This document shows, one piece after another, positions 14,300-37,513 of a DNA stretch of 64,000 nt. Under the pieces are notes generated by a model that saw only the letters and a program-made list of their open reading frames with translations, was not told where the DNA came from and did no database searches. Source of the stretch: a virus (lineage: Duplodnaviria; Caudoviricetes). Numbering within the stretch: the first letter of the stretch is position 1; each line of letters opens with the position of its first letter. Made by a program: the position numbers and the translations under genes. The stretch lies in the IMG/VR virus record IMGVR_UViG_3300048549_001527; one strand, 5' to 3'.

Positions 14300-14328
14300 T
14301 TGACATATCGTTTTGCCTGTGGTATACT
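14300..14328 (+). promoter_or_regulatory. Sigma70-type early promoter
   Basis: TTGACA-17nt-TATACT with extended TG and an upstream A-tract. Confidence 0.85.
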
Positions 14329-16142: not shown

Positions 16143-16300
16143 TGGATTATAAAGATCTTGTAAAAAAGTTTGTCTCTGAAGGCGGTTCCATTACAAAGTG
16201 TGAACCGTCAAAGAAACGTTTCAAAACATTCCGCGGCAAGGCGGGAGCCTACAATCGTGGTGCTAAGAAAATCAATTTGCAGGATAAAGGTATTGCATAA
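16142..16300 (+). CDS. Small basic hypothetical protein (52 aa, not in ORF track)
   Basis: MDYKDLVKKFVSEGGSITKCEP...; TAATG coupling at both ends. Confidence 0.65.
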   Translation: MDYKDLVKKFVSEGGSITKCEPSKKRFKTFRGKAGAYNRGAKKINLQDKGIA

Positions 16301-16833
16301 TGTGTAAATCTGCTATTAAAAATCTCGCATCTTTACTTCGCACTGAAGTCTTCGACAAAATTGATTCCTATTGGACTGAGGCTGAAACTTATAGTATTAT
16401 TGAACTCAGAGATTTAGGTAGCGGATATTACGACGAAGATCGTTATCAAGTTAATCATATTGTTGCTCCTAAAAGGAGCGGTAGATCTATTGATGCAAAT
16501 AGTGCCAAAGGCGTATACATTTGGTATCACGGAGATCAGATTATGTATGTTGGTAAAACAGACGCGCCTTCAACGAGTATTCACAAACGGCAATATGCCC
16601 ACTCGCGTAGCTTTACAACACCACACGAAAGACACGAATCTTCAGGACGTAAATATCGCGAGTTTTTAAAAGAAAATAATTTACATTCTATGGATATTGT
16701 GATAAAATATATTAATACTGATAAGTTTGATATTGAAGGTATGGCAGAACTCATTGAAACTGCAACTATTAATAATTATCAGCCATTACTTAATCGTGAA
16801 ATTAAAGGGAGAGGCCAGAGAGAATGCTATTAA
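16300..16833 (+). CDS. Single-domain GIY-YIG endonuclease (DenA/EndoII-like size)
   Basis: GVYIW...IMYVGKT...KR...LIE...I..YQPLLN. Confidence 0.8.
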   Translation: MCKSAIKNLASLLRTEVFDKIDSYWTEAETYSIIELRDLGSGYYDEDRYQVNHIVAPKRSGRSIDANSAKGVYIWYHGDQIMYVGKTDAPSTSIHKRQYAHSRSFTTPHERHESSGRKYREFLKENNLHSMDIVIKYINTDKFDIEGMAELIETATINNYQPLLNREIKGRGQRECY

Positions 16834-28565: not shown

Positions 28566-29075
28566 ATGAATGTATATAAAGTGAATGAAAATGCTGAGTT
28601 GCCGGCATATGCAACAGATGGCTCAGCTTGTTTTGATATTAAAGCATGTTTTAAACGTGGTGATAAACTTTTAGCCTATAATAATTGGAATAAAGAAACA
28701 CACGTGGCGGTTAAAGGTGTTGGGCGAGTTGCTGACGCGTTTCAAATTCCCCCGGATACTAGAGTCTTAATACCAACTGGCCTCGTGTTTGATATACCTG
28801 AAAACCACGTAATGAAAATGTACGTACGTTCAGGCGTTGCACTAAAAAAAGGATTGACATTAGCAAATAATGTTGGTATAATAGATTCAGACTATGTGGA
28901 ACAGACTTTCATTATGATGATTAATCAAACTGATAGTCTTGTTATGATTGAAAACGGTGAGAGACTGGCGCAGTGTCTTATTGAAAAGACTACAAAAATT
29001 GAAATTAATGAAACTGCTGAACCAATTGTTTCTAAGACAGATCGTGATGGAGGTTTTGGTAGTACAGGAGATTAA
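28566..29075 (+). CDS. dut: Trimeric dUTPase
   Basis: SACFDI, RSG.A.K, GIIDSDY, RLAQ, RDGGFGSTG. Confidence 0.93.
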   Translation: MNVYKVNENAELPAYATDGSACFDIKACFKRGDKLLAYNNWNKETHVAVKGVGRVADAFQIPPDTRVLIPTGLVFDIPENHVMKMYVRSGVALKKGLTLANNVGIIDSDYVEQTFIMMINQTDSLVMIENGERLAQCLIEKTTKIEINETAEPIVSKTDRDGGFGSTGD

Positions 29076-29076
29076 A

Positions 29077-29412
29077 ATGTTAAAATACATTACTTTAGGA
29101 CTACTTGCTGCGAGCTCTGCTGTGGCACAAGAACAAGGTGATATCACACGACATCCTTGTGGATCGTTTGAAGAAGCTGGAGCAATTTTAAAATCAACAG
29201 GGCAAGATATGCTTTGGAAAGGCCGCGGCACAACATTCCATATTAGCGGTGAGCAACAAACACCTGAAGTGGTATTCCATGTTAATCAGAAAACCGGTGC
29301 ATGGAGTTTAGTATCGTTATATCCAGGAAACATAGCTTGTTTAGTAATGGCGGGATGGGGGTTTGAGCCTTATTCAATTCCAACAAAAAAAATTGAAAAA
29401 AAATCCCCATAA
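29077..29412 (+). CDS. Secreted/periplasmic hypothetical protein
   Basis: Signal peptide MLKYITLGLLAASSAVA; GGAG RBS; two Cys. Confidence 0.7.
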   Translation: MLKYITLGLLAASSAVAQEQGDITRHPCGSFEEAGAILKSTGQDMLWKGRGTTFHISGEQQTPEVVFHVNQKTGAWSLVSLYPGNIACLVMAGWGFEPYSIPTKKIEKKSP

Positions 29413-29415
29413 CTA

Positions 29416-29443
29416 TTGACATTTAACTAAAAAGTATTATATA
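29416..29443 (+). promoter_or_regulatory. Putative promoter of hsp20
   Basis: TAACTATTGACATT identical to two early promoters; the -10 box is only a weak match (TATATA). Confidence 0.5.
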
Positions 29444-29447
29444 TAGA

Positions 29448-29508
29448 TAGTAGACGCTCAACAGAGGTCTATTAAAATTAACTCGCTTATTTAAGGAGAA
29501 CAAAAATG
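29448..29508 (+). promoter_or_regulatory. ROSE-like RNA thermometer in the hsp20 5' UTR
   Basis: Hairpin 1 TAGAC-G-CTC/GAG-GTCTA; hairpin 2 CTC-G-CTT/AAG-GAG sequesters the SD with a bulged G; contains UCGCU (ROSE consensus UYGCU). Confidence 0.7.
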
Positions 29509-29964
29509 ACTAGAACTAAATTTAATGCGGCAGCGCTAAACGATCCATTGTTTATCGGATTTGACAGAATGTTAGAAAGAATGAATTCTGTTGATACAGT
29601 GCATCGCAACACGTCCAATTATCCCCCATATAATATTGTAAAAGTAGACGAAGATAATTTTACTATAGAACTGGCATTAGCTGGTTTTAAAGATGAAGAT
29701 ATTGACGTTACACTAAAAGATGGAGTATTATATGTTGAAGGTAACCAAGGTGATAACGATGAAAAAACATATTTGCATCGTGGGCTATCGGCTCGTTCCT
29801 TCCGTAGATCTTTTACAATAGCTGATACCATTGTTGTTAATGGAGCAGATTTTGTAAATGGCATTCTAACCATTTCGTTAGAAAATGTAATTCCTGAAGA
29901 AAAGAAACCTCGAAAGATTGCTATCAACAACGGAAATCATAAGGCTGAACTTCTCAACGGGTAA
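29506..29964 (+). CDS. hsp20: Small heat-shock protein Hsp20 (IbpA-like)
   Basis: FIGFDRM, NYPPYNI, ELALAGF, YLHRGLS.RSF.RSF, NGILTI.LE..IPEEKKPRKI. Confidence 0.95.
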   Translation: MTRTKFNAAALNDPLFIGFDRMLERMNSVDTVHRNTSNYPPYNIVKVDEDNFTIELALAGFKDEDIDVTLKDGVLYVEGNQGDNDEKTYLHRGLSARSFRRSFTIADTIVVNGADFVNGILTISLENVIPEEKKPRKIAINNGNHKAELLNG

Positions 29965-29970
29965 GTACTA

Positions 29971-29998
29971 TTGACAAAATAATAAACTATGTTATATT
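29971..29998 (+). promoter_or_regulatory. Sigma70-type promoter
   Basis: TTGACA-16nt-TATATT with extended TG. Confidence 0.7.
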
Positions 29999-30011
29999 GA
30001 TTCTAATAACG

Positions 30012-30035
30012 GTCAAACCCTATACTGGGTTTGAC
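30012..30035 (+). repeat. Perfect 9-bp inverted repeat (5' leader hairpin)
   Basis: GTCAAACCC-TATACT-GGGTTTGAC followed by TTTT. Confidence 0.75.
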
Positions 30036-30058
30036 TTTTAACACACACGGAGAGTAAT

Positions 30059-30418
30059 ATGAAAAAGGTAAAACCCATTGGATGGGCAACCACATTGACT
30101 GAAATTGCAAGTATTCCTAAAGATATGTGGGATAGCGTAATGACAGTAGAAAAATCCCCACTACAAAATTTAGACCCTATGGTAGGACACATGATCTTTC
30201 AGTGTCTATTCTTTATTTGGTCTGGTATTTTTGCATTAATGGTAGGAAGTTATTTGGCATTTGGAATTAGTGCTGCGTTTCACCTATTGCTTATTAGCGG
30301 TATTACAATTACAGTTGTGACATTTCGTCAAGCAGAAAACAATCCCGAGTCTCTTAACAATCTTTTAAAATCAGGTCGTAAATATAATGGCCGTGCAAAT
30401 GGTGGTGAGCATGAGTGA
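30059..30418 (+). CDS. Membrane hypothetical protein
   Basis: Two hydrophobic helices; GGAG RBS. Confidence 0.75.
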   Translation: MKKVKPIGWATTLTEIASIPKDMWDSVMTVEKSPLQNLDPMVGHMIFQCLFFIWSGIFALMVGSYLAFGISAAFHLLLISGITITVVTFRQAENNPESLNNLLKSGRKYNGRANGGEHE

Positions 30419-30966: not shown

Positions 30967-31395
30967 ATGAAAAATTTAATTACCGCTAGTATTATGGCGC
31001 TTTTTGCAACAACGGCATATGCTGAAGATATGACTGTTGAAATGTTGAACAAACGTGATGATGGCGCTAAGATGGTATATAGTGAAGATATCGCACGTAT
31101 TGACGTAGGTGATACAATCACATGGGTACCAACATCAAAAGGTCACAATGTAGAATTTATTGCGGGCCCAGACGGATGGAAAGCACCAAAGAAATCAAAA
31201 CTTAACAAAGAAGTGGCGATTACATTTGATACACCAGGCGTATATCTATATCAGTGTTCGCCACACAAAACAATGGGCATGATTGCCATTGTGGTTGTAG
31301 GTAAGCCAGAAGGTGAAGCTAAAGATCGTTTGAAAGATGTCAAAGTAAAAGGCAAGTCAAAGAAGAAGTTCAAAGAGTTACTGGCTGATCTATAA
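30967..31395 (+). CDS. Pseudoazurin (periplasmic type-1 copper protein)
   Basis: Signal peptide; VEMLNK..DG.KMV; GHNVEF; Y.Y.CSPH..MGM (His, Cys, His, Met ligands). Confidence 0.92.
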   Translation: MKNLITASIMALFATTAYAEDMTVEMLNKRDDGAKMVYSEDIARIDVGDTITWVPTSKGHNVEFIAGPDGWKAPKKSKLNKEVAITFDTPGVYLYQCSPHKTMGMIAIVVVGKPEGEAKDRLKDVKVKGKSKKKFKELLADL

Positions 31396-37505: not shown

Positions 37506-37513
37506 TATAAATA
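37506..37513 (+). promoter_or_regulatory. Late promoter TATAAATA (towards gp48)
   Basis: Exact consensus in the divergent gp4/gp48 gap. Confidence 0.8.

Follow-up and report, generated by a model that had tools for sequence, protein, structure and literature searches.

The closest described relatives of the RNA element studied here precede bacterial genes for small heat-shock proteins (sHsp). Krajewski et al. (2013) described the leader of Pseudomonas ibpA as a 5' UTR of about 61 nt with two hairpins, the second of which pairs the Shine-Dalgarno (SD) sequence imperfectly with a U(U/C)GCU motif, while the AUG stays free (PMC3669281). The gene is read from a sigma-32 promoter (PMC3669281). In validated elements of the ROSE type, deletion of the bulged residue abolishes induction and opening of the flanking G-C pairs de-represses (PMC3669281; PMC4152365). 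Cimdins et al. (2014) described the hsp17-type thermometers of cyanobacteria and the 'avalong' element of Anabaena (PMC4152365). There is also a second kind of control on the same leaders. E. coli IbpA binds the stem-loops of its own RNA thermometer and represses translation until aggregates titrate the protein away (Miwa et al., bioRxiv 10.1101/2020.04.20.050740). This self-repression requires R93, positive charge at R97/K98 and the aromatic Y34, and IbpB, with Q at position 93, is incapable of it (PMC10474464).

In phages the situation is different. Our full-text searches of the literature found no description of a ROSE-type element in a phage, and the work on cyanophage sHsps makes no mention of a thermometer or of the UTR. 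Lambda cIII is a phage RNA thermometer. Another is the fourU element of SPbeta blyA (PMC10586365). A 2024 review merely speculates that viral RNAs might behave in a thermometer-like way (PMC10884466). The hsp20 gene is a core gene of the marine T4-like cyanophages, which are very abundant phages (Sullivan et al., 2010; PMC3037559). Here we describe the leader of an hsp20 gene found in a viral sequence of 64,000 nt. This whole stretch of DNA is referred to below as the window.

The hsp20 locus

The gene codes for an IbpA-like sHsp that is 43% identical to IbpA of Salmonella and 41% identical to IbpA of P. aeruginosa:

29506-29964, + strand: hsp20, 152 aa (Pfam HSP20 PF00011, E 1.6e-19)

Upstream are found the gp45 clamp, the gp44/gp62 clamp loader, RegA and a dUTPase, in a block gp45-gp44-gp62-regA-dUTPase-x-hsp20, and downstream come small ORFs, a plastocyanin-like gene and the baseplate genes. 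The order gp62-regA-...-hsp20-...-gp43 is the same in Synechococcus phage S-PM2 and in phage C48C1, both Kyanoviridae, and the window therefore comes from a T4-like marine myovirus. Seawater metagenomes from several studies, over and above the samples that it may have come from, contain its DNA almost in full. Two genes flanking hsp20 in this early region deserve a comment. The ORF at 30967-31395 (+) codes for a copper protein of the plastocyanin/azurin family with an N-terminal signal-like segment, and the small ORF at 29075-29412 (+) has a signal-peptide-like start, MLKYITLGLLAASSAVA. Judging from their sequences, both products are candidate auxiliary or periplasm-directed phage proteins.

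Architecture of the leader

The gap between the end of this small signal-peptide ORF (29412) and the hsp20 start (29506) is 93 nt. Positions 29448-29508 (+), directly 5' of the gene, make up a two-hairpin RNA leader according to the sequence and its fold, and on the hsp20 mRNA this leader would be 58-61 nt long. The elements are the following:

29448-29474, + strand: hairpin 1, with an 8-bp outer stem, a bulged G29456, an apical CUC/GAG stem and an AACA tetraloop (MFE and centroid fold)
29448-29455 with 29467-29474, + strand: outer stem of hairpin 1, 5' arm UAGUAGAC and 3' arm GUCUAUUA (predicted pairing)
29457-29459 with 29464-29466, + strand: apical part of hairpin 1, CUC and GAG around the loop AACA (predicted pairing)
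29482-29498, + strand: hairpin 2, the proposed thermosensor, with anti-SD CUC-G-CUU, loop AUUU and SD AAGGAG (MFE and centroid fold)

The two hairpins are separated by 7 nt of A and U. The MFE structure and the centroid computed with RNAfold both consist of exactly these two hairpins, with -14.3 kcal/mol (z = -3.78); 200 dinucleotide shuffles of the leader all gave less stable folds. Within hairpin 2, CUC (29482-84) and CUU (29486-88) pair with the GAG and AAG of the SD (29493-98). G29485, which belongs to the UCGCU motif (29483-87), is left unpaired in the predicted fold, and the same column is the bulge in the Rfam families ROSE_3 (RF02523, the Pseudomonas ibpA type) and ROSE_2 (RF01832, enterobacterial). 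The hsp20 AUG (29506-08) is located 7 nt 3' of the SD and is unpaired. A preliminary description of this DNA, made from the letters alone, had proposed a two-hairpin leader with the SD AAGGAG opposite CUC-G-CUU and a bulged G29485 in UCGCU, and both sequence and folds agree with it to the base.

The features that define ROSE_3 were found one after the other. The SD is in the 3'-most hairpin and its pairing with the anti-SD is imperfect in the predicted fold, with a bulged G opposite the SD; the anti-SD contains U(U/C)GCU in the form UCGCU; and the element is the 5' UTR of an sHsp gene (the ORF with the Pfam HSP20 domain), with a stabilising 5' hairpin that covaries (see below). In the same way, all the defining features given in PMC3669281 were present in the sequence and predicted fold. 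The predicted promoter is not the sigma-32 heat-shock promoter of the usual bacterial context, which is typical of these RNAs but does not define them.

When all 4,227 Rfam families were searched for in the 64 kb of the window, a single match had E < 0.1, namely ROSE_3 at 29448-29511 (37.6 bits, E 3.9e-4). The alignment spans the full model, 1-69, with hairpin 1 aligned to positions 1-27 and with both hairpins, UCGCU, SD and AUG aligned to the model's own. The score was 5.4 bits short of the gathering score of 43, and Rfam-based annotation would therefore not report the leader. Thus, the covariance search that had been proposed as a check returned a full-length match with a low E-value, but one below the curated cutoff. 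The core of hairpin 2 also matched positions 41-57 of ROSE_2 almost letter for letter. The bare motif YYGCU...AGGAG...start occurred four times in the window against 0.9 expected. The bare anti-SD/SD motif has no specificity; it is the complete arrangement of two hairpins preceding hsp20 that is significant. One false positive of such a simple motif search is the perfect palindrome GCTCCT-AAAA-AGGAGC at 16463-16481 (both strands), inside the ORF 16300-16833.

Related phage leaders and covariation

A blastn search with the locus as query found nothing in 50,697 phage records, and relatives were reached via the protein. Scanning IMG/VR with the Hsp20 protein yielded 80 loci, 95% to 41% identical, and the 90 nt 5' of each start were inspected. 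Nearly all of them share one layout. There is a 5' hairpin with an outer stem that is always paired although its sequence varies freely, followed within hairpin 1 by a bulged G, then CC, CUC or CCC and then a tetraloop; hairpin 2 has Y-Y-G-C-U-U opposite the SD. In some clades an extra middle hairpin is present, so that the phage leaders range over two- and three-hairpin forms, as bacterial ROSE elements do. In the three-hairpin variants L009, L012, L015 and L021 (perhaps also L019) the insertion between the conserved two is a GCCGG...CGGC hairpin. A scan of contigs with the single Hsp20 protein recovered only two MAG loci (51% and 30% identity), neither of them with a leader match at E <= 0.01.

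One subclade (L009, L010, L012, L014, L019, L022, L023, L028 and L084) has a conserved GAUAGCAA(A) between SD and AUG, in the last ~12 nt. The motif is complementary to the anti-SD UUGCU, and the MFE structure of several leaders of this subclade pairs CUUGC with GCAAA and not with the SD. On the model folds, GAUAGCAA(A) may form a competing 'anti-anti-SD' helix that frees the SD in these phages. The leader of the window does not contain it.

A first MAFFT alignment of 34 leaders (A1) put the 2-bp and 3-bp apical stems out of register, RNAalifold detected next to nothing in it, and it was dropped. The alignment used instead (A2, also MAFFT) contains 23 viral leaders of a single geometry, leaves out the clade of the window and has the structure written explicitly. 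In A2, 96.7% of the cells were paired, compared to 81% in shuffles and 40-66% when the partner was slid. The covariation score was 0.513 against 0.218 in shuffles, and none of 500 shuffles scored as high. All six outer pairs of hairpin 1 had compensatory changes on both sides. An alignment of 47 leaders repeated the result, this alignment being itself fitted to the model R1 described below. Covariation among phage hsp20 leaders, the evidence that the preliminary description had called for, does exist in hairpin 1. Hairpin 2 barely varies, as is expected of a helix in which one arm is the SD and must be kept, and its conservation therefore adds little independent evidence. Across the 47 viral leaders GCUU and the bulged G are invariant and are preceded by Y-Y, and the sole changes in hairpin 2 are from U-G to C-G.

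From A2 we built a covariance model, R1, which was thus trained without the clade of the window. In the window it matched 29449-29508 with 35.1 bits (E ~1e-6). Over 319 kb of loci it gave exactly one match per locus (E <= 0.01), in 47 of the 50 sources, and all the matches ended on the hsp20 ATG. By contrast, ROSE_3 judged by E-value on 16 viral loci found three of the 16 leaders, every one sub-threshold, and its scores on the relatives went from 12.7 to 34.1 bits when they were detected. Cultured relatives, too, either stayed under the gathering score or went undetected with ROSE_3. The cultured phages with an R1 match adjoining hsp20 are these:

Pelagibacter phage Mosig, 49.4 bits
Methylophilales phage Melnitz, 39.9 bits
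Synechococcus phage S-CAM3, 26.5 bits
phage C48C1, 25.7 bits
Synechococcus phage S-PM2, 23.7 bits
Pelagibacter podovirus HTVC103P, 22.1 bits

In the five complete cultured phage genomes (141-198 kb) the best R1 match was always the hsp20 leader, and in four of them it was the sole match. Phage S-CAM3 (KU686198.1) has a second, weak one at 194045-194085 (-), with 20.9 bits and E 0.007, distant from hsp20. In this phage (L086) the hsp20 CDS is annotated from locus position 1564, while an in-frame ATG at 1489-91 closes the ROSE-like leader and the match to the protein sets in at 1501. Judging from the sequence, the deposited CDS probably lacks 25 codons at its start.

None of the inspected records of cultured relatives had the leader annotated, which bears out the expectation that gene annotation would miss this cis-regulatory RNA. 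Being sub-threshold in Rfam and unannotated in the inspected records, the phage copies are missed by standard pipelines; a covariance model trained on phages recovers them cleanly.

Comparison with bacterial thermometers

As positive controls we used bacterial sequences present within the phage collection, a P. aeruginosa fragment filed as 'phage Y7' and a Salmonella contig. On ROSE_3 the leader of P. aeruginosa ibpA reached 69.2 bits, and on ROSE_2 that of Salmonella ibpA reached 95.2 bits. In the opposite direction, the phage-trained R1 matched two bacterial leaders, that of P. aeruginosa ibpA with 17.4 bits (E 0.003) and that of Salmonella ibpB with 22 bits (E 1.7e-4). The core of the latter, ACUCGCUU...AAGGAGAA, is identical to that of the window. 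Besides, the bulged G followed by C(C/U) in hairpin 1 is common to the phage leaders, P. aeruginosa ibpA and Salmonella ibpB. The reciprocal matching and the shared hairpin 1 motif argue that the phage leaders are a divergent, AU-rich branch of ROSE-like elements and not a look-alike. Together with the full-length (sub-threshold) ROSE_3 alignment, the covariation of hairpin 1 and the invariant anti-SD core with its bulged G, this sequence evidence supports the original proposal of a ROSE-like, SD-sequestering element on a phage hsp20. What these analyses show is the predicted structure of the leader, its likeness to the ROSE family, its conservation together with the covariation, and its constant place in front of hsp20.

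The likeness to Pseudomonas ibpA is extensive. Both are leaders of about 60 nt with two hairpins and a free AUG on an IbpA-type sHsp gene; in both, hairpin 1 carries a bulged G and, above it, a tetraloop on a short apical stem rich in GC, and hairpin 2 pairs the SD with U(U/C)GCU around a bulged G. They differ in the ROSE_3 score (37.6 bits in the phage, under the gathering score of 43, against 69.2 in P. aeruginosa), in GC content (33% against 52%) and in hairpin 2, which is shorter and weaker in the phage (6 bp; dG37 -2.8 against -4.7). The predicted promoter is of an early, sigma-70-like type instead of sigma-32, and the carrier is a lytic T4-like marine phage. With the enterobacterial ibpA/ibpB leaders (ROSE_2) the window shares the core ACUCGCU...AGGAG, and with Salmonella ibpB also the two-hairpin layout and the ACUCGCUU/AAGGAGAA core by R1 alignment. 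The enterobacterial ibpA leader, however, is longer and has more hairpins, the match of the window to ROSE_2 is local only (13.9 bits), and the bacterial genes form an operon transcribed from a sigma-32 promoter.

The cyanobacterial hsp17-type and avalong thermometers are similar in that the SD of a small heat-shock gene is held in a weak hairpin, and the anti-SD of avalong is ROSE-like. Yet the bulged residue of avalong is a U and its hairpin 1 is long, whereas the phage leader, with its bulged G, conforms to the ROSE pattern of proteobacteria, and the hsp17 thermometer of Synechocystis forms a separate class. Lambda cIII and the blyA fourU are likewise phage-borne structures in the region of the ribosome binding site through which temperature alters translation, but they are unrelated in sequence and architecture, have no ROSE motif, are not on chaperone genes and belong to temperate phages. 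What was known is the architecture, the gene family and the presumed mechanism of short ROSE-like thermometers; what is new is the phage carrier, the promoter, the AU-rich composition and the sub-threshold Rfam score.

Some of the records used as controls showed irregularities. In the Salmonella contig AGRM01000003.1 (L093) the ibpB CDS is annotated from 1657, while its ROSE-like two-hairpin leader (1627-1704) ends on the ATG at 1702-04, which gives the expected IbpB of 142 aa; ibpA is annotated from 1174 and the ROSE_2 model puts its AUG at 1180. The record OQ572409.1, 'UNVERIFIED Pseudomonas phage Y7' (L092), has an ibpA locus of bacterial type with a full-score ROSE_3 leader, and ibpA loci of bacterial type are also found in the records of Campylobacter phages A11a and A18a (H5/H6). 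The ibpA loci of Y7, A11a and A18a may be host DNA filed as phage.

Promoter and transcript

Immediately 5' of hairpin 1 there is a predicted promoter:

29416-29421, + strand: -35 hexamer TTGACA (sequence; conserved in the closest relatives L001-L008)
29438-29445, + strand: -10 region TATATA(TA), 16 nt after the -35, also matching 7 of 8 positions of the T4-type late box TATAAATA

Sequences of the form TTGACAT...N16-17...TATA(T/A/C)T are found before small early-region ORFs, at 14300, 14538, 15803, 23213, 28854 and 29971, and before hsp20 itself at 29416 (+). Exact TATAAATA late boxes precede structural genes, for example at 37506, 53134, 62983 and 11190(-). It appears, therefore, that hsp20 is read from an early promoter of the host sigma-70 type, TTGACA-N16-TATATA, and not from a heat-shock promoter. 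Many relatives have a TATA(A/T)ATA box whose last base is 3-5 nt 5' of hairpin 1, often with TTGACA 16-17 nt upstream of the box. The -10 region of the window, TATATATA, is one mismatch off the late box TATAAATA, and with the combined boxes of the relatives this makes a dual early and late use of the promoter possible.

From the promoter, the predicted transcription start site (TSS) is at ~29449-29452, about 30 nt upstream of the anti-SD. A start downstream of the anti-SD had been named beforehand as something that would speak against a thermometer, and as far as prediction goes the start lies on the other side. An internal promoter-like sequence at 29451-78, TAGACG-N16-TAAAAT, which would start transcription within the anti-SD, was discarded: its match of 9/12 is at chance level (16 such matches were found in the region against 8.4 expected) and its -10 is not kept in L001 and L002. 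Metatranscriptome contigs from two or three studies cover coding parts of hsp20 only (29536-29985 and 29583-29975) and show neither transcription nor the 5' end.

No terminator was found between the upstream ORF and the leader, and transcripts reading through would therefore carry the whole leader too. Hairpin 1 was considered as a terminator of that ORF and rejected; no U run follows it and the promoter is immediately 5'. At the other end of the gene a further hairpin is found:

30011-30039, + strand: 10-bp GC-containing hairpin plus UUUU, GGUCAAACCC / GGGUUUGACU (fold and sequence)

It is located 3' of the hsp20 stop and of the promoter-like site 29971-98, and the next ORF is 30059-30418. 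This is probably the terminator of the hsp20 transcript, the alternative being a 5' leader hairpin of ORF 30059-30418. The scan for consensus terminators missed it because its T run has only four T.

Hairpin stability and the proposed thermometer

Nearest-neighbour energies of hairpin 2 were compared among the window, the phage leaders and the bacterial controls:

Window: -5.8 (15 C), -2.8 (37 C) and -1.0 (50 C) kcal/mol
Median of 47 phage leaders: -3.9 kcal/mol (37 C)
P. aeruginosa ibpA: -4.7 kcal/mol (37 C)
Salmonella ibpB: -5.1 kcal/mol (37 C)
Salmonella ibpA: -6.0 kcal/mol (37 C)

At 15-25 C hairpin 2 of the window is about as stable as the bacterial control leaders at 37 C (-4.7 to -6.0). 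The modelled energies fit a thermometer tuned to seawater temperatures, with a set point below that of mesophilic bacteria. In the nearest-neighbour model the SD of the leader alone was free with a probability of 0.0001 (15 C), 0.0016 (30 C) and 0.0077 (37 C). When 22 nt of the coding region were included, alternative pairings appeared and the change was smaller, with values of 0.026, 0.057 and 0.086 for these temperatures. The modelled effect is thus modest within an ocean-like range, in models that omit the non-canonical pairs known in ROSE RNA.

We favour, and consider likely, a reading in which the hsp20 leader belongs to the short ROSE-like elements with two hairpins known from Pseudomonas ibpA (ROSE_3) and opens with temperature. 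Transcription would start at ~29449-29452 from the sigma-70-like early promoter, and read-through from upstream promoters would also supply the whole leader. Hairpin 1 would form at the extreme 5' end of the hsp20 mRNA. Hairpin 2 when closed, a weak and imperfect helix over the SD, would hinder 30S binding, and upon warming it would open gradually and the translation of Hsp20 would rise. We infer the lowering of translation by SD occlusion, the temperature-dependent opening and the lower set point. For the leader of the window, temperature sensing is suggested by homology to the validated bacterial thermometers and by the predicted stability of the hairpin.

Alternative readings

The precedent of E. 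coli IbpA, which represses itself through the thermometer stem-loops (bioRxiv 10.1101/2020.04.20.050740), invites a different reading of the same leader. Its main function could be that of an operator through which the phage Hsp20 exerts feedback, the oligomeric protein repressing its own translation with temperature at most modulating, and the repression would lift when aggregating or unassembled proteins draw Hsp20 off, for instance during the mass synthesis of virion proteins. Leader and gene are both of the kind seen with IbpA, and the arginine and the aromatic residue needed for mRNA binding are retained in the phage Hsp20. Y39, R97 and R100/R101 are found at the aligned IbpA positions in the window (Salmonella IbpB has Q in the R93 column), and the arginine is kept in nine of ten aligned phage Hsp20s. 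This arginine is nevertheless widespread in proteobacterial IbpAs, so the residues are compatible with feedback without discriminating it. Self-repression has been demonstrated only for gamma-proteobacterial IbpAs, the phage side of the comparison consisting of residues identified by alignment. Feedback would also explain the conserved bulged G and C(C/U) motif of hairpin 1, for which masking of the SD gives no reason, and the retention of the element in a thermally stable habitat, since an ocean phage meets little thermal change and the case for a pure thermometer is weakened by that. Against it, the published mechanism acts on top of the thermometer and not in its place, and feedback alone leaves unexplained the bulged G of the anti-SD, which weakens the helix. 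As the main role of the leader we find feedback rather unlikely.

Both kinds of control could be combined, and we put this forward tentatively. Phages would have acquired a dual sensor along with the ibpA-like gene, in which Hsp20 binds both G-bulged hairpins and shuts off its own translation, aggregation of virion or host proteins releases it and temperature only shifts the set point.

Another way to look at the leader is as a constitutive structure with no sensing at all. The 5' hairpin, which almost all relatives have at the very 5' terminus of the predicted transcript, would block 5'-end-dependent mRNA decay, and the SD hairpin, weak enough (dG37 -2.8) for the ribosome to open it at any temperature, would damp the translation of an early gene, the ROSE shape having been inherited with the gene from a proteobacterial ibpA. 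The small temperature effect modelled once the coding sequence is included agrees with this. However, the bulged G and GCUU are invariant across hsp20 genes whose products are 41-95% identical to that of the window, including a myovirus family and a podovirus, which argues for selection on a precise thermosensor geometry rather than on any hairpin, and bacterial leaders of ROSE-like kind have been validated as thermometers (PMC3669281). We regard a purely constitutive role as very unlikely. As for a resemblance by chance, with hairpins that have no role, the score under the curated Rfam threshold and the four occurrences of the bare motif in the window can be cited for it, but the window-wide E of 3.9e-4 at the one site where a ROSE element is expected, the E of ~1e-6 with the independent model R1 and the 47 homologous leaders with compensatory changes and conserved position contradict it and reduce it to a negligible option.

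Significance for marine phages

Besides cyanophages, phages that infect SAR11 and OM43 also have the hsp20 gene. With a conserved switch acting on it after transcription, phages would control their chaperone without the heat-shock sigma factor of the host, and the leader would be a concrete and readily testable link from seawater temperature, or from the load of protein folding, to phage gene expression. Being weak and AU-rich, the hairpins might also find use as parts for low-temperature thermosensors. If the dual sensor is true, it would be the first known chaperone-mRNA feedback loop in a virus; the supply of chaperone would track the assembly load in infection, and this would explain a 'thermometer' on a core gene in phages of a thermally stable ocean.
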